A stretch of DNA of 64,000 nucleotides from Candidatus Omnitrophota bacterium (GTDB lineage: Bacteria > Omnitrophota > Gorgyraeia > Gygaellales > Profunditerraquicolaceae). Each line of letters opens with the position of its first letter. Within the stretch, counting starts at the first letter, position 1. The notes beneath the pieces were generated by a model, which was not told the origin of the DNA, did not search any database, and saw only the letters and a list, made by a program, of their open reading frames with translations. Location: the NCBI GenBank assembly GCA_041650295.1, contig JBAZLM010000003.1, positions 2,933 to 66,932 of the forward strand, written 5' to 3'. The position numbers were made by a program, and so were the translations under genes. Positions 1 to 57,434 of the stretch are shown piece by piece.

Positions 1-958
1 CTGAAGTTGCAAAAACCTGCCAAGATTTATGTGCTTTACTTAATTTTTTACCTAAATCCTGCGCTTGTTTGCGATTATTACAAAGTGCAAATACCGCCGC
101 CCCACTTCCAGACATCATAATTTTTTCTAAGCCTATGTCAGAAAATGCTTTTTTAACCTGATTAATTACAGGATAAAGACTGGTAGTAGCAATTTCTAAG
201 TCATTGATCAGGTATTTGCGCTCAAACCTACTGCCTTTTTCAAGTAACTCAGAAGTTAGCATTTTAACATTACACTTCTTTCTTGTCAACCCCGCACCTT
301 GTTTTATTTCCAACTTTTTCCCATCTTGGATTTGCACAAGGTGCGGGGTCAATCTAGAAAAATGCCTGTCTGCCAGCAGACAGGCATCAAATTTTTCATA
401 AACCAAAGGTGTAGAAACCTTAAGATTAGGATAAATCAGCACAAACCAAAGCTTAAGCTTCCGCAAAGAAGGTAGGGGCGCAATCTTATCTCCGCGTTGG
501 CTACCTATAGCAAATTTAGTATTATAAATAAAGAACGCCACATCGCTACCTAGCTTTGCCCCTAAAGTAGCCAACCTTTTGAGCGATAAATTTAATTTCC
601 AGTATTTATTTAATCCCCAAAGAACAGCCGCGGCATTGCTAGAGCCTCCACCTAAACCTGCTCCCACCGGAATATTCTTTTTAAGCTCTATATCTAAACC
701 TAAATTTATTTTCTTTTCTTCTTTCAATAACTCTACTGCCCGCCAACAAAGATTAGTAGCGTCAATAGGCACAAATTTATGATTACATTTAATTTTAATT
801 AAATTATCCGCGCGATTTCTTAAAGTAATCGCATCGGCTAAATCAATTCGGCAAAATAAAGTACTTAAATTATGAAATTTATCTTGGCGTTTATTTAAAA
901 TTTGCAGATAAAGATTTACTTTGGCGAAGGATTTAACTGATAACAAGGATGGCTTCAT
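1..958 (-). CDS. ispE: 4-diphosphocytidyl-2-C-methyl-D-erythritol kinase (IspE), 3' end beyond window; carries an in-frame 63-bp palindromic insertion
   Basis: Manual translation of the minus strand from ATG at 958: MKPSLLSVKSFAKVNLYLQI...PVGAGLGGGSSNAAAVL...MSGSGAAVFAL. These are GHMP-kinase/IspE motifs. The frame stays open to position 1. The ORF is not in the track because it runs off the window edge. Confidence 0.8.
   Translation of the reverse strand, partial: MKPSLLSVKSFAKVNLYLQILNKRQDKFHNLSTLFCRIDLADAITLRNRADNLIKIKCNHKFVPIDATNLCWRAVELLKEEKKINLGLDIELKKNIPVGAGLGGGSSNAAAVLWGLNKYWKLNLSLKRLATLGAKLGSDVAFFIYNTKFAIGSQRGDKIAPLPSLRKLKLWFVLIYPNLKVSTPLVYEKFDACLLADRHFSRLTPHLVQIQDGKKLEIKQGAGLTRKKCNVKMLTSELLEKGSRFERKYLINDLEIATTSLYPVINQVKKAFSDIGLEKIMMSGSGAAVFALCNNRKQAQDLGKKLSKAHKSWQVFATS
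286..352 (-). repeat. Palindromic element (family 1 core) inserted in-frame within ispE: TTGACCCCGCACCTTGT-N31-ACAAGGTGCGGGGTTGAC
   Basis: A perfect 14-bp inverted repeat at 289-302 and 336-349 has the same CCCCGCACCTT core as the intergenic elements. Its length is 63 bp (21 codons) with no stop in the ispE frame. Confidence 0.6.
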
Positions 959-2726: not shown

Positions 2727-3684
2727 GATTGGAAAGCTTGAGTAACTTTTCTTTTATACTGCTTTGCGTAGAATCTAGTTTCAGAGATTTCTCCCAATTT
2801 AATTTTGCACTATCCAGATTGCCTAATTTTAAATAAGTTTCACCCAGGTGATCGTATATCGTCGGTTCACTTAACAAAGCTGCCGCGCGTTCTAATTGCT
2901 GCAAGGCCTCTGGATATTTATTTTTCTTAAAATAATACCAACCCAAACTATCAATATAGGCGCCATTTTGTGGCTCAAAACTTAACGCCTTTTTAATCAT
3001 CTGACCAGCCGCTTCAATATTTTTATTTTGTTCTAAATAAAAGTATCCCAAAAAATTTAAAGCTTCGTGATAATTAGGATTTAATTTTAAAGCGCTGTTT
3101 AATTCTTTCTCTACGGAAGAGTTATCTTTTAAATCAAAATAAATACTACCTAAATATAAATGCGCCTCTGAATCTTTTGGCGCCATCCCCACAATTAACT
3201 TAAAAATTCCTTCAGCTTCTTTTAATTTTTTTTGCTGCAAATAAACTACGCCTAAACTTTTGTAAATTTCAACATTCTTTGGTTCAAGTCTAACCGCATT
3301 CTTTAAAGCAACGGTATATTCCTGCGCCGCTAAATCCGCTTTATCTTGCGCCGCATAAACTAGCGCCAGTATTGCATGCGGTTGAACCGCCTCTGGAGAG
3401 ATCTCCACGGCATCTTTTAAATGTTGCACCGCCAGAACCAAATCATTCTTGCGGATATAAACCGAAGCTAAACTTAAGTGTAGTAAAGCACTCTGTGGAT
3501 CAGCATTAAGTGCTTGACTATACTCCTGCACGGCTCGATCTAAGTCTCCTAAATCTTCAGAGTAAACCCCTAAAATATAGTGACTTAAACCTTGGATATC
3601 TTCTTTGGTATCTGAAGCTCTAGCCGGACAAATAGCTAAAGCCAATGTAAGGCAAATTACACTAATAAGATATTTGAAATTCAA
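2716..3684 (-). CDS. TPR-repeat protein with signal peptide (secreted or lipoprotein)
   Basis: N-terminal hydrophobic signal (LTLALAICPARAS) followed by repeated TPR-like helices (YxxLGxxY patterns). Confidence 0.6.
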   Translation of the reverse strand: MNFKYLISVICLTLALAICPARASDTKEDIQGLSHYILGVYSEDLGDLDRAVQEYSQALNADPQSALLHLSLASVYIRKNDLVLAVQHLKDAVEISPEAVQPHAILALVYAAQDKADLAAQEYTVALKNAVRLEPKNVEIYKSLGVVYLQQKKLKEAEGIFKLIVGMAPKDSEAHLYLGSIYFDLKDNSSVEKELNSALKLNPNYHEALNFLGYFYLEQNKNIEAAGQMIKKALSFEPQNGAYIDSLGWYYFKKNKYPEALQQLERAAALLSEPTIYDHLGETYLKLGNLDSAKLNWEKSLKLDSTQSSIKEKLLKLSNHGK

Positions 3685-3688
3685 AGGT

Positions 3689-3799
3689 TTAACCCTTACC
3701 GCCCCAAGCTCTCTTCTTCAAGTGACGTAGACGACGACGTAATTTCTTACGCTTGTGGGTTTTGATTTTCTGTCGTTTTCTTTTCTTTCCGCAAGGCAT
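3689..3799 (-). CDS. 36-aa extremely basic peptide (bS22/L34-like ribosomal-type peptide?)
   Basis: Manual translation gives MPCGKKRKRQKIKTHKRKKLRRRLRHLKKRAWGGKG*. The gene is too short for the ORF track. Composition and length resemble small ribosomal peptides. Identity is uncertain. Confidence 0.3.
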   Translation of the reverse strand: MPCGKKRKRQKIKTHKRKKLRRRLRHLKKRAWGGKG

Positions 3800-3868
3800 A
3801 ACTATTTCTCCTTTAATAAAAATGTGTCATTGCGAGGAGTCCACCGAAGGCGGACGACGAAGCAATCT

Positions 3869-4753
3869 CTAATAAATAACTTTATTCAGCGGATACTCAA
3901 TAATCCCGCAAGCACCAGCTTCTTTTAACTCCGGGATTAATATGCGCACTACTTTCTCATCAATAATTGTCTCAATCGCTACCCAACCGTCATCACTTAA
4001 ACCAGAAATTGTCGGTTTCTTTAAGGCGGGCAACTTGGCAATAACTTTAGCTAAATCTTCTTTTTTGACATTCATCTTTAAGCCAACTTTATCTTCAGCG
4101 GTAATTGCTCCTTCTAAAAGTAAAGCAATCTGCTCCATCTTGGTTTTCTTCCAATTATCTTGATAAGCACTTTTATTGGCTATAAATTGCGTGGTGGATT
4201 CACAAAGTGTAGCAATTTCAGTTAATTTATTAGCCCGCAGAGAGCTGCCAGTTTCCGTAAGCTCGACGATAGCATCGACTAAACCACCGCTTACTTTAAC
4301 TTCTGTAGCACCCCAACTAAATTCTACTTCCACCTTAACTTTATTTTTCTCAAAATAATCTTTGGTAACATTAACTAACTCTGTAGCAATGCGCTTTCCT
4401 TCTAAATCTTTTACTGTTTTTATACCAGAGTCCTGGGGAACCGCTAAAACCCATCTAACCTTACTCATACTTTGTTTAGCGTAAGTTAAGTTACTGACTC
4501 TAACTACATCAGATTTATTCTCTAAGATCCAATCATTACCGGTGATTCCGCAGTCCAATGCCCCATCTTGCACGTAACGCGACATCTCTTGAGCACGCAA
4601 CAAGGTACATTGAATTTCAACATCATCTATCGACGGGAAATAAGAACGCGAACTAGATAAATTCACATTAAATCCGGCTTTTTTAAGCATCTTAAAGGTC
4701 GCCTCTTGCAGGCTACCCTTAGGCAATCCTAATTTTAAAATCTTATCTTTCAC
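3869..4753 (-). CDS. hisG: ATP phosphoribosyltransferase, long form (HisG). The GTG start lies inside a repeat element
   Basis: 294 aa with KLGLPKGSL near the N-terminus and a C-terminal regulatory domain. The start is GTG at 4753-4751 (no in-frame ATG before the conserved motif). Confidence 0.85.
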
Positions 4754-4828
4754 CCCGCACCTTCTCCTTATTTATTCTAAACCCTACCCCTTCTTCAATT
4801 CTAAATACCAAGAAGGTGCGGGGTTCAT
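4751..4828 (-). repeat. Family-1 palindromic start-codon element (copy 1): ATGAACCCCGCACCTTCT...GGAGAAGGTGCGGGGTG
   Basis: Inverted 13-nt arms CCCCGCACCTTCT / AGAAGGTGCGGGG. The terminal GTG is the hisG start. The 5' ATG opens uORF MNPAPSWYLELKKG*. An SD-like GAGGAAAG sits 6 nt upstream of that ATG. Confidence 0.6.
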
Positions 4829-4862
4829 CTAACTTTCCTCTAAATAAATTAACAAGCAAATT

Positions 4863-4891
4863 ATTATAACGGGATTAATATATATTGTAAA
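4863..4891 (-). promoter_or_regulatory. Putative sigma70 promoter TTTACA-N16-TTATAAT upstream of the hisG leader element
   Basis: Minus-strand hexamers with 16-nt spacing. They lie about 35 nt upstream of the uORF SD. Confidence 0.3.
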
Positions 4892-4902
4892 GTAAAATAT
4901 CG

Positions 4903-7566
4903 TTAGCCAAGCTCTACTGTGATTACATTGAGCTTTTCTTTTGGTAAGCTGGTGATAACTTCGCGCGTAAAAATCAGAAAGCGAGATTTATCAATGCCCA
5001 GATCCTCAGAATTAAGCCAAAGTTTAGCAATGCGGTATTTGCCGACATCCAAACGATTAGAATTCATAAAAACAATCTTTAACTTTCTATTCGCAAAAAC
5101 CCGATTAATACTTATTTTGTCCGTAAACTTAAACTGCTCTGCCGCCAGCTTTGGTTCAATCAACAAGTCACCATCTTTCCCTCGCACTCCAAATGTCTGC
5201 GTAAGCAAAGTAAAAACGAACCAACTAGCCGAACCAGTTAAATATGGGTACATTCCTTGACCAGCTAGATCAAAATACTCCGGCAGACAAGGATAAATTT
5301 TACTTTTAGTAGTGTTAGTGGCCATTTTATACAATGAACTTAATACTTTCCAACCCTCCTGAGCATAACCTTGTTTATATAATGCATAAGCAAACATCAC
5401 CACCATATGACTAAAAACCGCTCCGTTTTCTTTGTTACCGTAAGCAAATGAAAATGCCCGGCCAAAATTATGCTGCTCTTTCTTAAAATCTGTATTTAAA
5501 CGGATCCCTCCTAAAGAAGAATCATACAAATAGCGATGAACATTATTTAAAATTTCTTTAGTTTGTTTAGAGGTAGCCACCGCACTCATAATCGGAAACA
5601 CCTGCGAGGTCAAGGTCATCTGCAGAAGATTTCCTTGTTTACCGTCAATTCTATTTTTACAATTATCATAATAACCGTTAAAGAACCCTTCCTTTAACCA
5701 TTCATTTTTACGGATATGTTCTTTTATCCAAACGGATTTTTCTTTTAAAGAACGACTTAATGCTTCTGTATTTATACGTATTTTTCTACCGGAAAGATTA
5801 CTTTGAGTTTTAGAAAAATAATTTTTTAATATCTTGTGCTTTTGCGCAATATTCTGATAATTAAAATCGGTGAATAAAATCTTTAACTCTTGCGCCACTT
5901 CGATATCTTTGCGGCTGCATTTTTTTAACAGTTGCGCTAAAGTTTCCAGATTTTGCGCATACATCGCCGAAAAAGTTACGCTTTCGCCATGCTCTTTAGC
6001 CATATCCAAACCATCATTCCAATCAGCGCCTTCTAAACGAATATGATTATGCGCACCGACATTATAAAACTGCACTAAATTTTGCACCAACAGATGTTCT
6101 AAAATTGTACCCTGATAAATTTTACCATTTCTTGTTTTTAATTGATTACCGTAAGTCTGACTCCATTTGTAATCAATATCCTTGGTGCGATTAATCTGAT
6201 GATTCCGAAAATACGTGGCCGGTTCAAATAAAATCTTTAAATCGCCAGTTTCTTGAAGATATAAATCCAAGGTAATTAACGGCCAAACTCCGTGATCCAT
6301 CCAAACGCGACTAATATTATTGCGGTCAGCTACGAATTCACCAGAGTTCTTTCCAATAATCGTCGCATTGGACCCGTCAATTTTAACTCCGCAGAAATTA
6401 TTAATTAAAAGTGGTCGCACTGCTTGCGGATTACTAATAATTAAGCCTAAGCAATCTTGCCAAAGATCACGCCAACCCCGACCACCTTTACCATAATCAA
6501 AATCCGGTAAAAATGAACAACCGAAAATTTTACGCAAAGTAGGCTGAATACTTACCCAACGTAACCAATTATCAAAATCTTGATTACCACTGATAACGTC
6601 TAAAACTTTAGACTTACTGGCCCAATAATCCTTAGTCAACTTAAAATGCTTTTCAACTTTCGCATTACTGCCGAATTTGTTAATCAAGGAATTTAAATTA
6701 CAATCGTTTTGACCAATTCCCATAAGAATAATATAAGTCGCCTGAGAGTTAGGTGCTAAAGTAACTTTGGCAAAACGCAGTGCCCCCATCGGCTCTTTAC
6801 CCTGAATAAATTTCTTTTGAGAAAGCTGATTTTGAAAAACAGCCTCTGGAGATTCTAAGTCCCCAGAATCTCCACAAAAAATTTCCTGCGTTGGATAAAT
6901 ATATTGTGGACCACGACCACCCTGATTACAACCGGCCACAAAATAAACCGTATCGTTGGGCCGATGACCAGATTCATCAAAAAGCAAAGTCGGCTTAACT
7001 TTAATTCCATATTTTTCAGTTTTAATTCTAGTTAATAACGATGTAACTTGACGGTGATCACGCAAATTATCCGCGCTACGTGCATACATGGGAATCGCTG
7101 CATAAGGAATAAAGCTAATTGATTTTTTGCTAATATTAGTAAGTTTAACTTGCATTACTTCTAAAGCATCGTTACAGGCGGGCACAAAAGATAAGATTTC
7201 AGATTTTAAACCAACTGATTTATTCTTGCGACTAACCTTTTGCCAAAGTTGTCCGGCAGATAATTTAAATTTATCCTGTTTTAACTGTTTAAGGTTTTTA
7301 GAAACCCCGGTAGCCGACCAGATCTTTTCTTGATTAACATAAACCCAGAAATTACGTGAGGCCCTAGAAAGTGAAAGGCTAGCTCTGGAGGCTGGTTCAA
7401 ACAAAAAGCTATTGTGGCTACTCTTAATATCACCACTTAAATCAGCCGATATCGACGACATTAAACCCTGATTGCAAAGTGGCAGATGCAGTGACTTTAT
7501 TTTATTAGCAACAAATGATTCAAAGCTGCCCGAATCATCAATAAATTTGTATAGATTATTAGACAT
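4903..7566 (-). CDS. Large (alpha/alpha)6-barrel glycoside phosphorylase/hydrolase, GH94/GH65-like (cellobiose-phosphorylase-like)
   Basis: 887 aa with GWRDLWQDCLG and GADWNDGLD motifs, reminiscent of GH94-type phosphorylases. No signal peptide. Confidence 0.5.
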   Translation of the reverse strand: MSNNLYKFIDDSGSFESFVANKIKSLHLPLCNQGLMSSISADLSGDIKSSHNSFLFEPASRASLSLSRASRNFWVYVNQEKIWSATGVSKNLKQLKQDKFKLSAGQLWQKVSRKNKSVGLKSEILSFVPACNDALEVMQVKLTNISKKSISFIPYAAIPMYARSADNLRDHRQVTSLLTRIKTEKYGIKVKPTLLFDESGHRPNDTVYFVAGCNQGGRGPQYIYPTQEIFCGDSGDLESPEAVFQNQLSQKKFIQGKEPMGALRFAKVTLAPNSQATYIILMGIGQNDCNLNSLINKFGSNAKVEKHFKLTKDYWASKSKVLDVISGNQDFDNWLRWVSIQPTLRKIFGCSFLPDFDYGKGGRGWRDLWQDCLGLIISNPQAVRPLLINNFCGVKIDGSNATIIGKNSGEFVADRNNISRVWMDHGVWPLITLDLYLQETGDLKILFEPATYFRNHQINRTKDIDYKWSQTYGNQLKTRNGKIYQGTILEHLLVQNLVQFYNVGAHNHIRLEGADWNDGLDMAKEHGESVTFSAMYAQNLETLAQLLKKCSRKDIEVAQELKILFTDFNYQNIAQKHKILKNYFSKTQSNLSGRKIRINTEALSRSLKEKSVWIKEHIRKNEWLKEGFFNGYYDNCKNRIDGKQGNLLQMTLTSQVFPIMSAVATSKQTKEILNNVHRYLYDSSLGGIRLNTDFKKEQHNFGRAFSFAYGNKENGAVFSHMVVMFAYALYKQGYAQEGWKVLSSLYKMATNTTKSKIYPCLPEYFDLAGQGMYPYLTGSASWFVFTLLTQTFGVRGKDGDLLIEPKLAAEQFKFTDKISINRVFANRKLKIVFMNSNRLDVGKYRIAKLWLNSEDLGIDKSRFLIFTREVITSLPKEKLNVITVELG

Positions 7567-15259: not shown

Positions 15260-15849
15260 GATTTTCTAATTTTTAAGAAATTGAAAAAACCTAATAATAA
15301 ACCGATTACTAAAAGTGCCCCGGAAGGCATACCAAAAACAAATGCCGGTTCAAATCCCGGAATTAAAGTATGGCTAAAAATCTGCCCAGCACCTAAAAAT
15401 TCCCTAATTGCTGAAATAAGTACCAGAGCCAAAGTAAACCCCACCCCCATTCCTAAACCATCTAAAAAAGATTTGAGCAAATTGTTCTTACAAGCAAATG
15501 CCTCGGCACGACCTAAAACTATACAATTAACTACAATTAAAGGAACATATATGCCTAAAGCCCGATCCAGTACCGGACTATAAGCTTTTAGAATTAATTC
15601 AATTATCGTAACAAAAGTAGCAATGATGACAATAAAGCAAGGAATACGTATCTTATTAGGAATAAAATTCTTTACTAAAGAAATAATTACACTTGAACCC
15701 AAAAGTACAAAAGTCGCAGCTATTCCCATTCCGATCGCATTAACTACCGATACAGAAACTGCTAATGTTGGACACAATCCCAAAGCCAAAACAAATGTGG
15801 GATTTTCTTTAATTATGCCTTTAGTAAATTCCTTAATTAAATTCTTCAC
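15256..15849 (-). CDS. rnfE: Rnf complex subunit E. The GTG start lies inside a repeat element
   Basis: The N-terminus aligns with E. coli RsxE (LGLCPTLAV; NCIVLGRAEAFA). Confidence 0.85.
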   Translation of the reverse strand: MKNLIKEFTKGIIKENPTFVLALGLCPTLAVSVSVVNAIGMGIAATFVLLGSSVIISLVKNFIPNKIRIPCFIVIIATFVTIIELILKAYSPVLDRALGIYVPLIVVNCIVLGRAEAFACKNNLLKSFLDGLGMGVGFTLALVLISAIREFLGAGQIFSHTLIPGFEPAFVFGMPSGALLVIGLLLGFFNFLKIRKS

Positions 15850-15931
15850 CCCGCACCTTCTCCTATATTATTAATTAATTTTAACCCTCACTCCTTCCAA
15901 CAATTGAGTTCAAAGAAAGTGCGGGGTTCAT
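15847..15931 (-). repeat. Family-1 palindromic start-codon element (copy 2) at the rnfD|rnfE junction
   Basis: ATGAACCCCGCACTTTCTTTG...GGAGAAGGTGCGGGGTG. The uORF ATG overlaps the rnfD TGA (ATGA). The terminal GTG is the rnfE start. Confidence 0.6.
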
Positions 15932-25609: not shown

Positions 25610-27619
25610 CTATTCATTAATTAATTGTTTAATCTCATCTAAATGCTTACGCGCTTCAGCTTCACCGCGGCGGGCAAACTCATCGGCTTTATGTAGCTCT
25701 AACCAAAACAAACCGGTAGTATCCGGATGTAAAACAATGTCTGCCAACTCCCCTTCACGCCGAGCAACTTCCGATTGCAAAACCTCAACGCTACTAAAAA
25801 TAATATCAACAATATTTAAATTCAAAATACCCTTTAACCAACTAAAAAAATTAAAACCTTTTTGCAACTGATTAGCTTGACCAACCGCAGGAATAGTTTC
25901 TTTAAGCCTAGCCAGCTGTTTTAAAATATCTTCCCGCGATGGAGTAACATTAACGGCAATAATCTTTCTAATCCCCATCTGCATCAAAGGCTCAGTCGGT
26001 AGAGGATAAGTTACCCCTCCATCAAAAAGGATCTCTTCTTTAAATTTAAAAGGTGCAAAGACCCCCGGCATCGAACAGCTGGCCATTATAGCATCAACCA
26101 GCAAACCTTTATCAAAAATTTTTGGTTCTTTTTTGTGCACATTGCTAGCAATTATCTTTAAAGGCAACTTTACATCATAAAAAGTTTTATCCCCGAACTG
26201 CTTTTTTAAAAAACGGTACAACTTATTACCTTTAATAAAACCAAAACGCGGGAAAGTTATATCAATTAATCCCCAAATGTGCTTAGGCTCTTTAAATTCT
26301 CTAATAATATCTAGAATTTCACCGCTACTTTTACCAATTGCCCAAAGACTAGCAATTAAAGAACCAATACTAGAGCCAACGATTGTATCGATGGGTATCT
26401 TTTCTTCTTCAATAACTTTTAACACCCCCACATGACAAAAACCATAGCCCACCCCTACCCCTAAAACTAAGCCAACCTGACAATCACCGAGGTTTCTAGC
26501 GATTCTTCTCACCGCTTTAGAGTATTCACTATCCGGTTGATCGATAATTTGCCGATCAGGAGCTTGAGATTCTATTTTAGGAATAGTGGCAAAGATATCC
26601 TGGCCTAAAATATCCAATTGATCGCTATGATTAATTTTGGCCAATTTATATTCATTAACAATAGTAATAATTTTTTTCGCATCAAAATTAAAATCATTCT
26701 CTAAACGACTAATTAAATTGTTGGTACGCTTTAAATCTAAAGGATCCGGACTAGTCAGGATATGGATAAGATCGGACTGGTTGAGGATGGTAATCATAGC
26801 CTGATCCATCGCCACAGGCAAATCTAAAATAATATAATGATAATCATTCACCAGAATGCTAACTATCTCAATTAATCTTTTAAGGCAAGCAGGATTATTC
26901 TCCTGATAATAAAAACAAAATAAGTCTATACCAAAGCTACTTTTTAAAAGATAGTCTTTTGGTAAAGTATAGATATCCGAAGCAGTGGATAAATCAAAGA
27001 TTGGCGGTTGCTCTATCCCCAATTTAGCCGGTAAAGAGTGTGGTCTACCGCAAGGCAAGATATCTAAAATAATCACTGATTTATGCGTTTCGCGATTTAA
27101 ACTTAAGCCCAAATTTAAAGCATAAATAGTTTTCCCCGCTTGAGCATAAGAACTAAAAATAGAGATAACTGTGCTTTCAAAGATTTTTTTCTGATGCACA
27201 TCTTTATGTTTAAGGCGTCGACTTAACGTCCGACTTAAATCAATTGCCAGATGAGGAATTTTTTGTAAAACATCATCAAAATCTTCTTTTTTAATTACCA
27301 AAATAACACAATCGTTAATCGCTTCACTAGTCACCGAGTGCGCTTCACTAGTTAACAATGAAATAATCCCAAAATATTTACCGCGATGTAAATACTCTAA
27401 AACTGATTGCTTGCCATTTTGATCTTTGGTATAAATCTGCACTCGGCCAGAGATAATGCAATAAAAAGCGCAAGGGTTAGCCCCTTGCGCATAAATAATT
27501 TGCCCCTTGCGATATTCAACGATCTGACTTTTAGCGTTAATTATTGCCAGCTGGCCTTTACTTAGACCAGCAAAAAAAGGTAATTCTTTTATAATAAATT
27601 CTTTATCTTTGGGATTCAC
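25610..27619 (-). CDS. Cyclic-nucleotide-binding (CAP effector) domain / ParA-MinD-like NTPase-like / patatin-like phospholipase fusion protein. The GTG start lies inside a repeat element
   Basis: N-terminal cNMP-binding beta-barrel (GQIIYAQGANPCAFYCIISGRVQIY...YFGIISLL). The central region resembles deviant ParA/MinD (SYAQAGKT). The C-terminus is patatin with GxGxxG and GSSIGS (GxSxG). Confidence 0.65.
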   Translation of the reverse strand: MNPKDKEFIIKELPFFAGLSKGQLAIINAKSQIVEYRKGQIIYAQGANPCAFYCIISGRVQIYTKDQNGKQSVLEYLHRGKYFGIISLLTSEAHSVTSEAINDCVILVIKKEDFDDVLQKIPHLAIDLSRTLSRRLKHKDVHQKKIFESTVISIFSSYAQAGKTIYALNLGLSLNRETHKSVIILDILPCGRPHSLPAKLGIEQPPIFDLSTASDIYTLPKDYLLKSSFGIDLFCFYYQENNPACLKRLIEIVSILVNDYHYIILDLPVAMDQAMITILNQSDLIHILTSPDPLDLKRTNNLISRLENDFNFDAKKIITIVNEYKLAKINHSDQLDILGQDIFATIPKIESQAPDRQIIDQPDSEYSKAVRRIARNLGDCQVGLVLGVGVGYGFCHVGVLKVIEEEKIPIDTIVGSSIGSLIASLWAIGKSSGEILDIIREFKEPKHIWGLIDITFPRFGFIKGNKLYRFLKKQFGDKTFYDVKLPLKIIASNVHKKEPKIFDKGLLVDAIMASCSMPGVFAPFKFKEEILFDGGVTYPLPTEPLMQMGIRKIIAVNVTPSREDILKQLARLKETIPAVGQANQLQKGFNFFSWLKGILNLNIVDIIFSSVEVLQSEVARREGELADIVLHPDTTGLFWLELHKADEFARRGEAEARKHLDEIKQLINE

Positions 27620-27694
27620 TCCGCACCTTCTTCTTTATTCGCTACCTAACCCGCACCTCTTAATATATAAATACAAAGAAGATGCGGGGTTCAT
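27617..27694 (-). repeat. Family-1 palindromic start-codon element (copy 3)
   Basis: ATGAACCCCGCATCTTCTTTG...AGAAGAAGGTGCGGAGTG. The uORF ATG directly follows the GH1 TAA (TAAATG). The terminal GTG is the start of the downstream gene. Confidence 0.55.
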
Positions 27695-32945: not shown

Positions 32946-33572
32946 TTATTGATGCTCCTCTAAAAACTTTTGTAAATCTTTAGCTAAAGGTGCTTCTATA
33001 GTCACTAGTTTTGCCGTTTGTGGATGCTCAAACTCTAAATGTTGAGCATGTAAACAAACTCTTTTGGCCCGCAAAGCAAAATCTTTACGAAAAACAAATT
33101 TATCTTCCCCAACCAGAGGATGACCAATTCCTTTAAAATGAATACGAATCTGATTAGTTCTACCAGTAACCGGAGAGATCTCTACTACACAATAATTACT
33201 TTTTTGTTCTATAATTTTATATTTTGTAATCGCACTCTTACCTTCAATCGCTACGCTAATCGTTCCTTGAGCATGCGCTAATTTTCCGTGCACAAAAGCA
33301 AAATACTTTTTACTAACCTGGCGATTTCTAAAAGCATCCGCCATTTTAGCTTCTATGGCTTTAGATTTAGCATAAATAACTAACCCGGAAGTATCGCGAT
33401 CCAACCGATGACAAGGATAAAGCTGATAAACTAACCCTCTGTCTTTAGCGTCTTGATTTAAAATACTGGTTAACGTGCGCGATTCATTTTTTGGCGTCGG
33501 TACGCATAACAAGCCCGCCGGCTTGTCTACAATCAAAAGATAATCATCTTCAAAAACAATCGGAATATTCAC
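32946..33572 (-). CDS. RluA-family pseudouridine synthase. The GTG start lies inside a repeat element
   Basis: HRLDRDTSGLVIYAK catalytic motif. 208 aa. Confidence 0.75.
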   Translation of the reverse strand: MNIPIVFEDDYLLIVDKPAGLLCVPTPKNESRTLTSILNQDAKDRGLVYQLYPCHRLDRDTSGLVIYAKSKAIEAKMADAFRNRQVSKKYFAFVHGKLAHAQGTISVAIEGKSAITKYKIIEQKSNYCVVEISPVTGRTNQIRIHFKGIGHPLVGEDKFVFRKDFALRAKRVCLHAQHLEFEHPQTAKLVTIEAPLAKDLQKFLEEHQ

Positions 33573-33643
33573 CCAGCACCTTCTCTTTATTCATCTAACC
33601 CTACATCTTCTATATTTAAATATCAAGAAAGTGCGGGGTTCAT
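33570..33643 (-). repeat. Family-1 palindromic start-codon element (copy 4)
   Basis: ATGAACCCCGCACTTTCTTGA...GAGAAGGTGCTGGGTG. The uORF ATG overlaps the nadA TAA (TAATG). Confidence 0.55.
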
Positions 33644-38263: not shown

Positions 38264-39220
38264 TTACCGGCAGTGCATTAGATCCCCGCTACTCACTTTT
38301 ATCATCACTCCGGAATCCTTGCGAATCAGCAATGCTCCGTCAATATCGATATCTTGCGCCATCCCCTCAATATGTTTATCCTGGCAGTATACTTTAACCC
38401 GCTTACCCAAAGTAAGCCCAAAATGACGCCACTTCTCTACAATGGCCATATTCCCTTTTTTCTCTAATAAAAAATAATTCTCCTCTAATCTAAACAAAAG
38501 CTCCTGTAATAGCGTTACCCGGTTAACCGGTTGATCCAGCTGCTCTCTTAATGAAGTGGCTTGAGCAATTAAAGACTTCTTATCGTTATTCACATTTAGA
38601 CCGATTCCGATGACAATAAAATTAACTTTATCTACTTCAGCGTTCATCTCCGTTAAAATTCCGGCTAATTTCTTATTATGAATTAATACATCATTGGGCC
38701 ATTTAATCTGACTATCGATATCGCAAACCTCCTTTACCGCTTCACAGATACTCACCGCACTCAAAAGAGTTAAAATTGGTGAAACCGCTGGGGCAATCTT
38801 TGGTCTTAGAATTAATGAAAGGTAAATTCCTTTATATTTTGGCGAAGACCACTCTCTACCTAATCTGCCTCTGCCTTTAGTCTGTGATTCCGCTAATACC
38901 AAAGTTCCGCTAGCTGCTCCCTGCATCCCCAACTCCATCGCTAAATTCATCGTAGAATTTAAATAATCAAAATATTTAATTTTTTTACCGATAAACTTGG
39001 TGCGTAGATTACGTAAAACTTCAAAAGGAAAGAGCCGATCCGGACAAGACTGTAAACGATAACCCAAATGCGGCACTGCTTCAATTTCATAACCAGAATC
39101 TTTTAATTCCTGAATATGTTTCCACAACCCCTGACGACTAATCCCTAAATTCTTACTGATCTGATCGCCAGAAAGATAATCGTGTTCTTTACTTAGATAA
39201 TCGAGTATTTTTTCTTTCAC
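38264..39220 (-). CDS. birA: Bifunctional biotin-[acetyl-CoA-carboxylase] ligase / biotin operon repressor. The GTG start lies inside a repeat element
   Basis: N-terminal HTH (LSGDQISKNLGISRQGLWKHI) plus the BPL catalytic domain (GRGRLGREW). Confidence 0.8.
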   Translation of the reverse strand: MKEKILDYLSKEHDYLSGDQISKNLGISRQGLWKHIQELKDSGYEIEAVPHLGYRLQSCPDRLFPFEVLRNLRTKFIGKKIKYFDYLNSTMNLAMELGMQGAASGTLVLAESQTKGRGRLGREWSSPKYKGIYLSLILRPKIAPAVSPILTLLSAVSICEAVKEVCDIDSQIKWPNDVLIHNKKLAGILTEMNAEVDKVNFIVIGIGLNVNNDKKSLIAQATSLREQLDQPVNRVTLLQELLFRLEENYFLLEKKGNMAIVEKWRHFGLTLGKRVKVYCQDKHIEGMAQDIDIDGALLIRKDSGVMIKVSSGDLMHCR

Positions 39221-39297
39221 CCCGCACCTTCTAATTATTCATTAATCTTAAACCACCGCGCCTTCTAATATTATTCAAAAGAAGGTGCGGGGTTCAT
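39218..39297 (-). repeat. Family-1 palindromic start-codon element (copy 5)
   Basis: ATGAACCCCGCACCTTCTTTTGAATAA...TTAGAAGGTGCGGGGTG. The uORF ATG overlaps the upstream TGA (ATGA). Confidence 0.6.
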
Positions 39298-40358: not shown

Positions 40359-41490
40359 GTAGTTTTTTAACCACGGGAGGTAATTTTTCTAACAGATAAT
40401 CAATATCACTTTCGGTGGTCCAGCGACCCAGAGTTATTCTTAAAGATCCATGAGCAGTTCCATGATCTAAACCAATCGCTAATAAAACATGTGAAGGCTC
40501 TAAAGAGCTCGAGGTACAGGCTGAACCGGTGGAGCAAGCGATCCCCAGCATGTCTAGGCTTAAAAGCATCGACTCCCCTTCAATATATTTAATCGAAAAA
40601 TTGACATTATTGGGTAAACGTTTAGTCGCGTGGCCATTAAGAATAACTTCGGGAATCTTTAAAGGAATCTCTTTAATTAATCTATCCCTTAAAGCACTTT
40701 GCAATTTAATTTCATCTTTCATATTCTTTTGACAAAGCTCAACTGCTTTAGCCAGACCAACTATCCCCGGAATATTGTGTGTAGAACCTCGTCTACCTCT
40801 CTCTTGGTCACCACCGCGCATAAAAGTCTCTAAACGTGTACCTTTGCGAATATACAAAGCACCCACACCTTTGGGACCATAAAATTTATGCGCCGCTAAT
40901 GATAATAGATCAACATTGAGCTCATTTACATTTATCGGGATATGACCCACTGTCTGCACAGCATCCGTATGAAAATAAATTCCTTTTTCTTTAGCAATTT
41001 TTCCCAAAATTTCAATTGGCTGCAATGTTCCAATTTCATTATTAGCGTGCATAATACTAATTAGAATAGTTTTGTCGGTAATCGCCTTTTTTAAATCTTC
41101 CGGCAAAACTAAACCATCTTTATCCACTCCTAAATAAGTAACTTGAAAACCTTTTTTTTCTAAAAACTTTAACGGCTCGCTAATCGCATGGTGCTCAATC
41201 GCTGAGGTAATAATATGGTTGCCTTTTTTTTCTAAAGCATAAGCCACACCCATAATCGCATAATTATCCGACTCAGTTCCCCCAGAAGTAAAAACGATCT
41301 CTTCGGGTTTAGCGCCGATAAAATCTGCCAAAGTTTGTCGACTATCCTCTAGAGCTTTCTTAGCTTCTTGTCCATAGGCATGCAAGCTAGAAGCATTACC
41401 AAATTTTTCAAAAAAATACGGCTCCATCGCTTTTAAAACTAACGGATCAGTGGGTGTAGTTGCCGCATAATCTAAATATACTTTCTTCAC
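40327..41490 (-). CDS. iscS: Cysteine desulfurase (IscS/NifS). The GTG start lies inside a repeat element
   Basis: SGGTESDN, the PLP Lys region SLAAHKFYGPKG, and active-site SSGSACTS. Confidence 0.85.
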   Translation of the reverse strand: MKKVYLDYAATTPTDPLVLKAMEPYFFEKFGNASSLHAYGQEAKKALEDSRQTLADFIGAKPEEIVFTSGGTESDNYAIMGVAYALEKKGNHIITSAIEHHAISEPLKFLEKKGFQVTYLGVDKDGLVLPEDLKKAITDKTILISIMHANNEIGTLQPIEILGKIAKEKGIYFHTDAVQTVGHIPINVNELNVDLLSLAAHKFYGPKGVGALYIRKGTRLETFMRGGDQERGRRGSTHNIPGIVGLAKAVELCQKNMKDEIKLQSALRDRLIKEIPLKIPEVILNGHATKRLPNNVNFSIKYIEGESMLLSLDMLGIACSTGSACTSSSLEPSHVLLAIGLDHGTAHGSLRITLGRWTTESDIDYLLEKLPPVVKKLRAMSPLYEEK

Positions 41491-41566
41491 CCCGCACCTT
41501 CTCTCTATTAATTAACTCTTACCCTACGCCTTCTAATGTCTAATTTAACGAAGGTGCGGGGTTCAT
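41488..41566 (-). repeat. Family-1 palindromic start-codon element (copy 6)
   Basis: ATGAACCCCGCACCTTCGTTAAATTAG...GAGAAGGTGCGGGGTG. Its ATG overlaps the TGA of a 7-codon mini-ORF that begins at the GTG of the adjacent family-2 element. Confidence 0.6.
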
Positions 41567-41582
41567 CTCTTAATTACCTCAT

Positions 41583-41654
41583 TCACCACGTTAGAAACAG
41601 GTTGTCGCAGACAACCGTAAATTATCTTTTTGCCTTGTTTCTAACGAGGTTCAT
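41583..41654 (-). repeat. Family-2 palindromic element (copy a), 72 nt, fused in-frame onto the 3' end of the PP-loop ATPase gene
   Basis: ATGAACCTCGTTAGAAACAAGG...GGTTGTCTGCGACAACCTGTTTCTAACGTGGTGAAT. It shares its termini with family 1. The upstream ORF reads through ...SMNLVRNKAKR* inside it. Confidence 0.6.
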
Positions 41655-42437
41655 ACTACCAGTGCGATATCCTTCTAAATCTAATGTTATATAATTAAAC
41701 CCAAACTTTTTTAAACGTTCGACAATCTGTTGGCGCTTATTAAACAATTTATTTAAATCTTGTTTACCGACTTCAATACGACAAAATTCATGGTAATAAC
41801 GCAAACGCACTTGTTTGAAACCTAAACTATTGATATACTCTTCGGCCTGGTTGATTCTCCTCAATAATTTCGCGGTTATTTTAGTTCCGTAAGGGATACG
41901 CGAAGCCAAACAAGCTAAGCTTGGCTTATTCCAACTAGAAAGCCCTAACTTCTTACTTAATTTACAAATATCTATTTTCGTAAAACCCGCTTCAACTAAC
42001 GGCGACTTAATTTTCAACTCTGCTTTCGCCAAACTCCCTGGACGATAATCACCTTTATCCGTTATATTACTGGCTTCAAAAACAAAATTTAATTTATTTT
42101 GTTTAGCAATCTTAATTAACTTTAAAAAGAGCTCTTTTTTACAAAAATAACAACGCTTAACCGGATTAGCCGTAAACTTTTTATTACTTAATTCTTGCGT
42201 TCTAATTACTTTAAGCTCTACCCCAATATCTTTAGCTAATTTCTTAGCTTTAACTAACTCACTTTTAGGATAAGTCTGGGAAACCGCGGTGACCGCTAAA
42301 AATTTATCCGGTGCAAGGGTTAACGCACAAACTTTAAGCAGGAGTGCACTATCCTGGCCGCCGGAAAACGCCACTATACATGATTTATATCTACCAATGA
42401 TACGCTTAAGTAAATCTAACTTCTTTTGCAGAATCAT
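41622..42437 (-). CDS. PP-loop superfamily ATPase (LarE/COG1606-like sulfur transferase). The C-terminal tail is encoded by a repeat element
   Basis: CIVAFSGGQDSALLL PP-loop. 271 aa. Confidence 0.6.
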   Translation of the reverse strand: MILQKKLDLLKRIIGRYKSCIVAFSGGQDSALLLKVCALTLAPDKFLAVTAVSQTYPKSELVKAKKLAKDIGVELKVIRTQELSNKKFTANPVKRCYFCKKELFLKLIKIAKQNKLNFVFEASNITDKGDYRPGSLAKAELKIKSPLVEAGFTKIDICKLSKKLGLSSWNKPSLACLASRIPYGTKITAKLLRRINQAEEYINSLGFKQVRLRYYHEFCRIEVGKQDLNKLFNKRQQIVERLKKFGFNYITLDLEGYRTGSMNLVRNKAKR

Positions 42438-55090: not shown

Positions 55091-55950
55091 TAATTTTTTC
55101 CACTAAAGAAGACCGACGACTAATTACTGAAATACCCGACACAAGCTCTTTTTCGCCTGGTGATCGAAACCTTTGTTTTCTGATTCATGGACTTACCGGC
55201 ACCGCCAAAGAGATGGGTTCAATTGCTAAAAATTTAAATAAAAACGGTTTTTCTGTCGCTTGCCCCTTAATGGCTAACCACAATAAATCTATCTCTTGCC
55301 TTAAGCGCACAAGTTGGCAAGAACTATATAATTCTGTACGCCAAGAATTTATTAAATATGCCCATGATTATGAGAATATTTTTGTGGCCGGCTTATCTTT
55401 TGGTGCTTTAATTGGAATTATGCTGGCTTACGAATTCCCAAAAAAAGTTAAAGCCTTAAATTGCTTCTCTCCCACTCTCTTCTTTGACGGTTGGGCCAAT
55501 CCTAAATTAAGATTTCTTTTACCACTAGTTTATAAAACACCGCTAAAATATTGTTTTTATCTTAAAGAAGGGCATCCTTATGGGATTAAAAATGAGAGGC
55601 TGCGTTCAAGAATTGAAAACTTCTATACAAAATCAGAATTATTTGATTACAGCAAAGTACATCTCTACGGATACCCCGTAATTCCGGTATCTAGCATGGA
55701 ACAGAATCATTTACTGGCAAAACAAGTAATGAAAATACTTCCCCTCGTAACTACTCCGATACAGCTGCTGGGTGCCAAAGACGACGACGTCACTAGCCCC
55801 AAAAACTCTTATTATATCTATAACCATATTGGTTCAAAAGATAAAGAGGTAATATTATTCGAAAATTCCTACCACATTATTATTGCAGATCAAGAAAGGG
55901 ATAAAGTTGCGGAAAAAACTTTATCTTTTTTTCAAAAATACAAAACTTAA
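55087..55950 (+). CDS. Alpha/beta-hydrolase fold esterase/lipase
   Basis: GLSFG nucleophile elbow. 287 aa. Confidence 0.55.
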   Translation: MIIFSTKEDRRLITEIPDTSSFSPGDRNLCFLIHGLTGTAKEMGSIAKNLNKNGFSVACPLMANHNKSISCLKRTSWQELYNSVRQEFIKYAHDYENIFVAGLSFGALIGIMLAYEFPKKVKALNCFSPTLFFDGWANPKLRFLLPLVYKTPLKYCFYLKEGHPYGIKNERLRSRIENFYTKSELFDYSKVHLYGYPVIPVSSMEQNHLLAKQVMKILPLVTTPIQLLGAKDDDVTSPKNSYYIYNHIGSKDKEVILFENSYHIIIADQERDKVAEKTLSFFQKYKT

Positions 55951-57434
55951 GATTTTTTTAAGGCTCTAATTAACGCTTCTTCGAAAAGTTCAACCCCTAA
56001 ATCAATCTCTTCTTCCGTAATATAAAAAGAAGGTGCAATGGTAAAGACGTTTTTATAATAACCACCAACGTCTAAAATTAAACCTCGGCGTTTTCCTTTT
56101 ACATCTAAAGAACCGCTTAAACCTAAATTAACAATCTTATCGGTGAGCTCTTTATTAGGCGTATAGCCGTCTTTTTCGCAGATCTCCATACGCAAAGCCA
56201 AACCAATTCCATCAACATCACCGATCTGAGGATATTTTTTCTGTAATTTCTTAAGTTGATCAATAAAATAACGACCTTTTTTAGGGATCGATAATGCAAA
56301 ATCAGACTCTTCAATTAATTTCATCACCGCCAACCCCGCAGTTGTCCCCAAGGTATTAGAGGAAAATGTCGCATGAGTAGAACCCGGAGGAAAAACATCC
56401 GGATTAATTAATTTCTCTTTAGCCCAGATTCCGCTAATCGGATTTAACCCATTAGTTAGTGCTTTACCAAAAACAATGATATCCGGGGTAATATTAAAAT
56501 GCTCAATCGCCCAGAACTTTCCCGTGCGGAAAAATCCCATTTGGATCTCATCGTCCACAAAAAGAATTCCGTAGCGATCTAAAATTTCTTTTAGTTTAGA
56601 ATAATACTCTTGCGGTGGAACAATATAACCACCAGTACCTTGAATCGCTTCAGCATAAAAAGCGGCAAACTCACATTTATTATTCTTCTTATTCACCACT
56701 GAATAATATTCAGTCTCAAAAAGTCTTTCAAACTGTTTTAAACAATATAAATCACAAAAATCTCTTTTCTTATCATATGGACATCTAAAACAATACGGAT
56801 ATGGAATAAACATTGCCCGGTCTCCAAAATGACCGAAACGTTCCCTATATCTAAAACTCGAGGTAATCGCCGAAGCCGCTAATGTCCTCCCGTGATAACC
56901 ACCCATAAAAGCAAAAACCAAACTTCTACCAGTATTATTACGCACTAACTTTAATGAATCCTCTAAAGCACTGGAACCTCCGACATTAAAATGAATTCTC
57001 CCTTTCTCTTCAAAAGTCCGCTGATTTTTCTGAGCTAATTTTGTTGCTAACTCAATTTTTTCAGTATGCAAATACTGGCAAGCTAGTTGTGGTAAGGTAT
57101 CGATTTGCTTTTTTAATGCTTCATTGAGTTGAGGATTACCATAACCAAAGTTCACCGCTGAATACCACATCTGCAAATCTAAAAATTCTGTCCCTTGATC
57201 ATCATAAAGATAGCTACCATGAGAGCGCTTAAATATATTTAACTTTTCCGCATAATGCACGGTATCTCCCCAAGAGCAATATTTTGCTTCCAGATCAAGC
57301 AACTCATTATGCGTAATATTCTTTTTAATTTTAGCACTTCTCTTAATCATCGCTTTTGAATTCACCCCGTTAGAAACAGGTTGCCAGAGGCAACCGTGGG
57401 GCTTCTCTTTTATCTTATTTCTAACGGGGTTCAT
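55947..57434 (-). CDS. Class-III PLP-dependent aminotransferase. The N-terminal 26 codons are encoded by a family-2 repeat element (true start may be the internal GTG or ATG)
   Basis: DDEIQMGFFRTGKFWA and FGKALTNG (PLP-Lys) motifs. The track ORF begins at the element's ATG: MNPVRNKIKEKPHGCLWQPVSNGVNS. Confidence 0.7.
   Translation of the reverse strand: MNPVRNKIKEKPHGCLWQPVSNGVNSKAMIKRSAKIKKNITHNELLDLEAKYCSWGDTVHYAEKLNIFKRSHGSYLYDDQGTEFLDLQMWYSAVNFGYGNPQLNEALKKQIDTLPQLACQYLHTEKIELATKLAQKNQRTFEEKGRIHFNVGGSSALEDSLKLVRNNTGRSLVFAFMGGYHGRTLAASAITSSFRYRERFGHFGDRAMFIPYPYCFRCPYDKKRDFCDLYCLKQFERLFETEYYSVVNKKNNKCEFAAFYAEAIQGTGGYIVPPQEYYSKLKEILDRYGILFVDDEIQMGFFRTGKFWAIEHFNITPDIIVFGKALTNGLNPISGIWAKEKLINPDVFPPGSTHATFSSNTLGTTAGLAVMKLIEESDFALSIPKKGRYFIDQLKKLQKKYPQIGDVDGIGLALRMEICEKDGYTPNKELTDKIVNLGLSGSLDVKGKRRGLILDVGGYYKNVFTIAPSFYITEEEIDLGVELFEEALIRALKKS
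57363..57434 (-). repeat. Family-2 palindromic element (copy b), 72 nt, in-frame with the aminotransferase
   Basis: ATGAACCCCGTTAGAAATAAG...GGTTGCCTCTGGCAACCTGTTTCTAACGGGGTGAAT. The ATG overlaps the upstream HAD-gene TGA (ATGA). Confidence 0.6.

Follow-up and report, generated by a model that had tools for sequence, protein, structure and literature searches.

A MITE-like element at the start codon of hisG and its dispersed family in Candidatus Omnitrophota

The window analyzed here, a stretch of 64,000 nucleotides from a Candidatus Omnitrophota bacterium (contig JBAZLM010000003.1), contains a hisG gene whose leader combines a promoter, a short upstream open reading frame (uORF) and a long hairpin covering the ribosome-binding site. 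[quoted passage not shown] The element belongs to a dispersed family of Omnitrophota, designated family A, which by its sequence features is MITE-like, with 13-bp inverted ends and a 4-bp target duplication.

Filled and empty hisG sites

Every feature of the leader is on the minus strand, in the interval from the stop codon of a GH94-type gene (887 aa, ORF 4903-7566) to hisG (3869-4753), as follows.

4886..4891 (-): -35 hexamer TTTACA of the native hisG promoter, kept in 8/8 of the sequences upstream of hisG that reach this far, whether filled or empty
4863..4868 (-): -10 hexamer TATAAT, at a spacing of 17 nt from the -35; conserved, in contrast to its variable flanks and spacer
4833..4840 (-): GAGGAAAG, originally the Shine-Dalgarno (SD) sequence of hisG itself and now that of the uORF; AGGAAA/GAGGAAA equivalents lie in the same place in empty-site relatives
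4824..4828 (-): ATGAA, comprising the ancestral start codon of hisG and the 2 nt after it; its TGAA (4827-4824) represents the left half of the target-site duplication, as judged from empty sites and flank covariation
4784..4828 (-): uORF MNPAPSWYLELKKG*, reading from the old ATG into the element; 14 codons, with TAG at 4786-4784
4753..4823 (-): 71-bp palindromic MITE-like element of family A
4811..4823 (-): 5' terminal inverted repeat CCCCGCACCTTCT, anti-SD-like, spanning uORF codons 2-6
4781..4796 (-): degenerate second version of the 3' arm in the interior, GAAGAAGGGGTAGGGT, which can also form pairs with the 5' arm
4753..4769 (-): AAGGAG, the new ribosome site, and 3' terminal inverted repeat AGAAGGTGCGGGG, whose final G opens the new start codon
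4749..4752 (-): right TGAA copy of the target-site duplication, whose TG completes the GTG start at 4753-4751
3869..4753 (-): hisG, long-form ATP phosphoribosyltransferase, 294 aa, GTG start (TIGR00070 and HisG_C)

HisG is highly conserved within Candidatus Omnitrophota, and the DNA around eight of its relatives was collected and the upstream regions aligned with the window. If the leader arose by insertion, relatives should exist in which promoter, SD and ATGAAAG stand in an uninterrupted arrangement; this arrangement was sought and found. In six relatives (97, 96, 95, 90, 88 and 87% amino acid identity) the site is empty: an uninterrupted ATGAAAGATAAA leads into hisG, the codons ATG AAA GAT AAA continue directly as the gene, and both TTTACA-17-TATAAT and an AGGAAA-type SD are retained, with a promoter spacer that in one of them (L240) is identical to that of the window. 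Compared with these empty sites, the window has an extra 71 bp and a second TGAA, placed between ATGAA and AGATAAG. Because the empty-site relatives possess them, the promoter, the SD and the ATG are native hisG signals older than the element, and the alignment identifies the start of the uORF as the ancestral hisG start and the uORF as that old start codon reading into the insertion. The site is filled, at exactly one position, in the window, in L152 (89%) and, with variant arms, in L245 (91%), which gives an insertion polymorphism of three filled and six empty sites at 87-100% identity, with filled sites at 100, 91 and 89% interspersed among the empty ones. This patchy occupancy, together with the differing element variants, points to either repeated insertion at one site or repeated precise loss. 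The order GH94, hisG, a 36-aa ORF, TPR, split transketolase and ispE is conserved among the relatives and, therefore, hisG is ancestrally solitary here and did not become so through the element.

TTTACA-17-TATAAT matches the promoter consensus at 11/12 positions and is the top promoter-like site in 3600-5400. The end of GAGGAAAG is separated from the old ATG (4828-4826) by 4 nt, and the end of its GAGG core by 8 nt. In front of GTG the element offers AAGGAG at 10 nt and AGGTG at 4 nt, and GGAG-type SDs at -8 to -14 are the usage of genes across the window. The 13-bp arms, CCCCGCACCTTCT (4823-4811) and AGAAGGTGCGGGG (4765-4753), are perfectly complementary in the hisG copy, and a predicted 15-bp stem buries AAGGAG/GAAGGTG together with the first base of the hisG GTG (4753-4751). 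The minimum free energy of the leader fold is -37.4 kcal/mol (z = -4.64), and none of 200 shuffled sequences was as stable.

The original prediction, which likened this leader to a translational attenuator, had described a hairpin masking the hisG SD and GTG, a uORF that lies over the 5' arm and lacks His codons, and a hisG gene standing alone; all of this agrees with the present analysis, in which MNPAPSWYLELKKG contains zero His codons and no his-gene neighbors were found. The promoter, which it wrote as TTTACA-N16-TTATAAT, is real and is the same site as TTTACA-17-TATAAT, but it is native to hisG and does not belong to the element. The SD in front of the uORF is likewise present, although its distance from ATG is 4 nt instead of the 6 nt claimed, and it is the native hisG SD.

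A family of insertions at gene starts

Allowing <=2 mismatches, the window contains 15 matches to the arm 13-mer where 0.81 would be expected, and these resolve into seven hairpin elements in 64 kb. In six of the seven, the gene strand reads ATGAA / CCCCGCACCTTCT ... AGAAGGTGCGGGG / TGAA, the terminal G of the element and the next TG form the GTG start of a long ORF, and the ATGAA in front opens a uORF equivalent to that of hisG. The original prediction had set the hisG copy apart from operon-internal ones, a distinction that holds for its promoter only. The functions of the six genes are unrelated. Besides hisG, the family A copies in the window are the following.

15849..15926 (-): rnfE start, where the old ATG shares bases with the stop codon of rnfD (ATGA)
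27619..27689 (-): start of a CRP-like/patatin gene
33572..33638 (-): start of an RluA-family pseudouridine synthase gene
39220..39292 (-): birA start
41490..41561 (-): nifS/iscS start
290..348 (-): 59-bp variant in frame within ispE, with arms CCCCGCACCTTGT/ACAAGGTGCGGGG and target-site duplication TTGA

In four of the five start-associated copies other than that of hisG, the old ATG abuts or overlaps the upstream stop codon (ATGA, TAATG or TAA-ATG), which is the usual junction of coupled genes; in the remaining one, at nifS, 55 nt separate the copy from the present stop of the upstream ORF. The rnfE site is filled in the window and in L159 and empty in the orthologues L141, L055, L171 and L219, and filled/empty orthologue pairs were also seen at many other genes. 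Occupancy of ATGAA in the window is 6/19 at start codons and 0/13 at intergenic positions (p about 0.04), which leaves 13 sites of each kind unoccupied. Because this statistic is weak on its own, the claim of a preference for starts rests on the metagenome census described next.

A genome scan with a 14-mer found real copies in metagenome-assembled genomes of Omnitrophota only, the other matches being mostly chance occurrences in high-GC genomes. A metagenome scan, which required two 12-nt arms 35-65 nt apart and ignored the flanks, gave 119 loci, and the census comprises 113 distinct copies. Hainich groundwater samples were the source of many loci. Since most loci were found via the element itself, arm conservation and copy density are biased, but the flank statistics are not. 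The 4-bp duplication covaries between the two flanks: ATGAA/TGAA was counted 91 times, GTGAA/TGAA 11 times, ATGAG/TGAG eight times and ATGGA/TGGA twice, and six family A copies have TTGA/TTGA pairs. A TGNN duplication after NTG, followed by an ORF of >=50 aa or one running off the contig, is found in 84 of the 113 copies; another 13 have the G+TG start and an ORF while the left flank is mutated (old ATG decayed), five precede short ORFs, for example one of 37 aa, about five represent a CCCCC/GGGGG-ended variant with the same layout, and only four have other duplications (TTGA three times, TTTA once). About 90-95% of the 113 copies are, in sum, located at gene starts. Copy lengths range from 46 to 120 bp, too small for a transposase gene. 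Across 125 copies, 97.7% of the arm cells (1587/1625) are Watson-Crick paired, and between-copy identity is ~96% in the arms and ~49% in the interiors. Inverted ends, a variable target-site duplication, many small dispersed copies and insertion polymorphism are all observed, as is typical of MITEs. Full-text literature searches, which included the arm sequences, returned no description of family A, and the family is apparently undescribed.

The interior and the arms of the element vary in several ways. In L228, L229 and the hisG copy of L245, diverged sub-families carry compensatory arm changes (e.g. CCCCGCCCTTCC...GGAAGGGCGGGG) with the position of the start codon unchanged, so that the hairpin is kept while the sequence drifts, and it is one of these variants that fills the L245 hisG site. 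Another sub-family has arms ending in T...A, TCCCGCACC...GGTGCGGGA (L064:2864-2935 and 5048-5119, L217 and L092); the change of its terminal pair is compensatory, and the rebuilt start is ATG instead of GTG. At L222:4733-4977 a 244-bp copy contains an unrelated palindromic insert in its loop, L101:6775-6851 is a composite copy, and at L018:2428-2694 an element is nested at an ATGAA inside another element, in the tandem ...GGGGTGAATAAAAGAGAAGGTGCGGGGTGAA.

A second palindromic family, designated family B (CCCCGTTAGAAAy ... rTTTCTAACGGGG), has the CCCCG/CGGGG termini and the 4-bp duplication in common with family A. Its targets are looser (TGAA, TAAA, CTAA, TACA and others), and the left and right flanks again covary. 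Two copies, both with the ATGAA/.../TGAA layout, are present in the window.

57365-57429 (-): family B copy after the ATGAA start of the gene 55947-57434, readable as an in-frame 23-codon N-terminal extension
41586-41649 (-): family B copy in the gene now read 41622-42437, upstream of nifS; it occupies an ATGAA within the ORF, seven codons short of the original stop, and replaces the C-terminal residues of the host gene

The seventh family A copy of the window is also internal to a gene. It lies in ispE, encoding 4-diphosphocytidyl-2-C-methyl-D-erythritol kinase (ORF from 958 to before position 1), where the copy and its duplication add 21 codons, LTPHLVQIQDGKKLEIKQGAG; in an alignment, IspE has ~26 residues beyond solved IspE structures at the insertion point, and a similar TTGA-type in-frame copy occurs in L179. 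The internal family B copy, the nested copy of L018 and the in-frame ispE copy indicate that the target is a sequence and not a working start codon. The predominance of starts would then reflect either extra targeting information or selection favoring insertions at starts.

Some further observations were made in the window. Directly upstream of the ispE element and within the ispE frame, a perfect 12-bp palindrome, ATGCCTGTCTGC/GCAGACAGGCAT, followed by TTTTT (362-387), resembles an intrinsic terminator and may be a second small insertion. The start of a 127-aa ORF (22901-22892, minus strand) reads ATGAAGTGAA, which resembles an excision footprint ATGAA-G-TGAA; the sole orthologue, L194, aligns ATAAA-ATGAAA, and the candidate was rejected as probably a coincidental SD spacer. 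The 36-aa ORF right after hisG, MPCGKKRKRQKIKTHKRKKLRRRLRHLKKRAWGGKG (3689-3799, minus strand), is extremely basic, has its own AAGGAG and is called as a gene at the same place in L239, L242, L244 and L245. It has no match in NCBIfam and may encode a small ribosome-associated protein, which is a guess.

A probable coupled restart and competing explanations

The course of events can be considered as follows. The comparison of sites shows that a non-autonomous palindromic element of 71 bp entered hisG five nucleotides after the A of ATG and duplicated TGAA, whereby its terminal G and the duplicated TG came to form the new GTG, which leaves the predicted N terminus of HisG (MKDK...) unchanged. 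The enzyme behind the transposition and the coupling that ensued are inferred. Transcription would start from the native promoter, and in the naked mRNA pairing of the arms would bury the new ribosome site. A ribosome initiating at the native SD and ATG would unwind the 5' arm and expose the new SD and GTG, terminate within the element, as in the hisG copy, or at a GUGA overlap, as in most copies, and initiation or re-initiation would then take place at the rebuilt GUG. Translation of hisG would in this way be tied to the old initiation signals and not to the histidine supply.

The family as a whole agrees with such a generic restart module, probably coupled to translation, on a mobile element. 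A length of 1 mod 3 is found in 60 of 101 copies, and in 43 of these 60 the frame of the uORF meets no stop before the duplicated TGA, which overlaps the new GTG (GTGA). The number expected from loop shuffles is 8.2, and of the two alternative frames one is open in 0 copies and one in 4. Because the interiors are so dissimilar between copies, this openness must be upheld by selection. The uORF peptides have only their arm-encoded ends in common (MNPAPS ... EGAG), and therefore the act of translation, not its product, seems to matter. The interior copy of the 3' arm is in sense orientation in 72 copies and antisense in four, even though the ends themselves are symmetric. In our folding model, opening the hisG ribosome site (-18..+12 around GUG) costs 14.6 kcal/mol in free mRNA and 1.8 kcal/mol when the region from the old AUG to +20 is held single-stranded by a ribosome, against 5-6 kcal/mol in the empty-site relatives. 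For 70 copies, the modeled median cost falls from 17.6 in free mRNA to 7.1 with a ribosome on the uORF; with the interior flipped it is 18.9 despite that ribosome, and is above the natural value in 67/70 copies (p = 5e-13). According to the model, the new ribosome site would become accessible once the uORF is occupied by a ribosome, and folding explains both the open uORF and the 72:4 bias, a flipped interior keeping the site closed. One might go further and suppose that family A is specialized for translation starts, inserting at (A/G)TGAA starts with a full restart cassette: an anti-SD/SD hairpin with its 5' arm inside the uORF taken over from the host, a terminal G to restore GUG and a duplicated UGA closing that uORF at the new start, with selection acting on the open uORF and on orientation. 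We hold this extension tentatively, at somewhat short of an even chance.

Several observations weigh against these interpretations. The hisG uORF itself stops early, at codon 15, and not at a GTGA overlap. The old SD is weakened in L152, where the uORF is apparently not strictly needed, and together with the loss of the old ATG in 13/113 copies this means that coupling is not obligatory. In the 13-bp core stem, G.U and A.C mismatches number 19:8 (p = 0.05) in arms that were ascertained by exact match, which makes for weak direct evidence of RNA-level selection on the stem; a larger ratio of 63:11, considered as a sign of RNA-level selection, was discarded because it is driven by the unaligned positions 14-15. 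These interpretations do not account for the vacancy of the 13 intergenic non-start ATGAA sites of the window. No autonomous parent or transposase gene with these ends was found in ~1.6 Mb of fetched related loci, and the parent candidates considered, which had unpaired arms or arm pairs 0.4-4 kb apart, proved to be chance matches in unrelated genomes or two adjacent small copies.

The most obvious alternative is that the leader is a dedicated translational attenuator of hisG, with a purpose-built leader peptide sensing, for example, amino acid supply. A promoter, an SD, a uORF and an SD-masking hairpin are indeed all present, and hisG is isolated from other his genes, but the same uORF and hairpin precede rnfE, birA, nifS, the RluA-family gene and the CRP/patatin gene, and the six close relatives with empty sites have the same promoter and SD without the element, which largely refutes the idea. 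The uORF is devoid of His codons, zero terminator-like sites were detected in 3600-5400, and searches against Rfam retrieved only three tRNAs from the full window at gathering thresholds and only chance microRNA-type matches, with neither His_leader nor T-box, from 4700-4920 at E<=10. We regard this alternative as highly improbable. The original prediction was right that the leader is not a classical his attenuator, and its comparison with translational attenuators retains value as far as the SD of the uORF, the overlap with the arm and the modeled unmasking are concerned, but not in the sense of a hisG-specific device. An even more remote alternative, which we find scarcely credible, is that HisG is made from the old ATG by read-through, giving an N-terminal extension, or by ribosome hopping, with GTG unused. 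The old ATG and GTG are in frame and 75 nt apart, and at the family B copy of 57365-57429 the frame of the old ATG continues through the element; in hisG, however, two in-frame stops intervene (TAG at codon 15 and TAA at codon 19), a matched pair of take-off and landing codons is missing, and the element supplies an SD at a workable distance from a start codon that has been rebuilt in >100 copies.

Two further alternatives concern the nature of the family. The dispersed SD/anti-SD hairpin might primarily be a host regulatory device kept by selection, such as a thermometer, a site for RNase III or another protein, or a global brake, with mobility being incidental. The contrast between conserved arms and divergent interiors, the strong orientation bias and selectively open uORF, the near absence of copies from neutral intergenic ATGAA sites, and the persistence of filled hisG sites in lineages 89-100% identical would all suit such a device. 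The arm conservation is, however, inflated by ascertainment, the associated genes have no common function, and presence is patchy among close relatives; nested insertions, the in-frame intragenic copy and the copy near a gene 3' end look selfish, and a second family with different arms also makes a 4-bp duplication. We consider a primarily regulatory origin unlikely. The other alternative replaces a cut-and-paste transposase that makes staggered cuts with an HUH/Y1 enzyme (IS200/IS605- or REP/RAYT-type) for which ATGAA is an invariant target and insertion takes place 3' of it. Elements of the IS608 and ISDra2 type typically have a short and specific target, form hairpins and keep an orientation fixed to the target (72:4 here), but in IS200/IS605-type elements the target is not duplicated and the cleavage site at the right end shows no covariation with it. 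The flanks of the present elements do covary, as TGAG/TGAG (8), TGGA/TGGA (2) and TTGA/TTGA (6) in family A and as TAAA/TAAA and others in family B, and the orientation bias can be explained instead by selection at the RNA level. Such an enzyme therefore seems doubtful. A MITE-like insertion followed by coupled restart remains the interpretation that we prefer.

Implications and comparison with known systems

The present analysis removes a false lead, in that the hisG leader is not a new histidine attenuator. Once explained, the hisG-specific claim becomes ordinary, and what is left is a family that apparently represents an unusual MITE variant living on start codons, a transposable element that has made the start codon its niche. 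A gene hit at this position would normally be inactivated. Family A appears to tolerate its own choice of site because it supplies a ribosome site, restores the start codon and probably turns the old start into a coupled uORF. If this is confirmed, it would constitute a natural, portable cassette for translational coupling, and would illustrate how a selfish element can reshape translation initiation at housekeeping genes throughout a phylum that has been little studied. If the specialization for starts is also true, family A would be a transposon that neutralizes its own insertion through translational coupling, possibly spreading a common translational control or a micro-peptide (MNPAPS...EGAG) over unrelated genes. 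In practice, gene callers will assign GTG starts at these sites and overlook the uORFs, and comparative analyses of 5' untranslated regions in Omnitrophota are confounded by the insertions.

The hisG leader is like the classical his operon leader in placing a short ORF upstream of a histidine-biosynthesis gene, but it is unlike it in having neither a run of His codons nor a terminator/antiterminator with a U tract, in lacking an Rfam match and in being absent from close relatives. In translational attenuation of the ermC/cat type, a ribosome on the leader opens a hairpin that sequesters the downstream SD. Termination-reinitiation coupling at overlapping stop and start codons is a related process (PMC6728339 and PMC12548453). 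Family A is like both in having an upstream ORF with an SD and a sequestering hairpin, and UGA overlaps GUG (GUGA) in the 43 copies mentioned above. It is unlike the ermC/cat type in that no stalling signal or inducer is evident and in that the module is not gene-specific and comes ready-made on a mobile element. Rickettsia palindromic elements are tolerated inside coding genes and translated as part of the host protein. The ispE copy (290-348) and the family B copy at 57365-57429 can be read in frame in the same way, whereas copies of the hisG type contain stops and frame shifts that keep them out of the host protein; they separate the old start codon from the ORF, and translation would restart behind them.

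In being small, at 59-110 bp, and dispersed, in lacking a transposase gene and in having terminal inverted repeats and a target-site duplication, family A resembles bacterial MITEs such as the Correia/NEMIS elements of Neisseria and the enterobacterial ERIC, and it is also similar to them in being co-transcribed with its neighbors and in forming hairpins able to affect a downstream ribosome site. Known MITEs are mainly intergenic and use short, loosely defined targets such as TA. Family A is unlike them in residing at +5 of ORFs (about 90-95%), in rebuilding the start codon and in containing the SD within its inverted repeat, and it is unlike REP/REPIN-RAYT or IS200/IS605-derived elements because its flanks covary as duplications. 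Neisseria REP2 and Borrelia IR repeats equip downstream ORFs with a ribosome-binding site plus an ATG (Delihas 2011, PMC3184786). REP2 has no terminal inverted repeats and has its own promoter and ATG, and neither a target-site duplication nor a retained old start is described for it (PMC3184786). Family A differs from REP2 in that it has no promoter of its own, the old start lives on in the form of a uORF and the SD and anti-SD make up one long hairpin. In terms of function, REP2 and the Borrelia IR repeats are nevertheless the closest known counterparts of family A.

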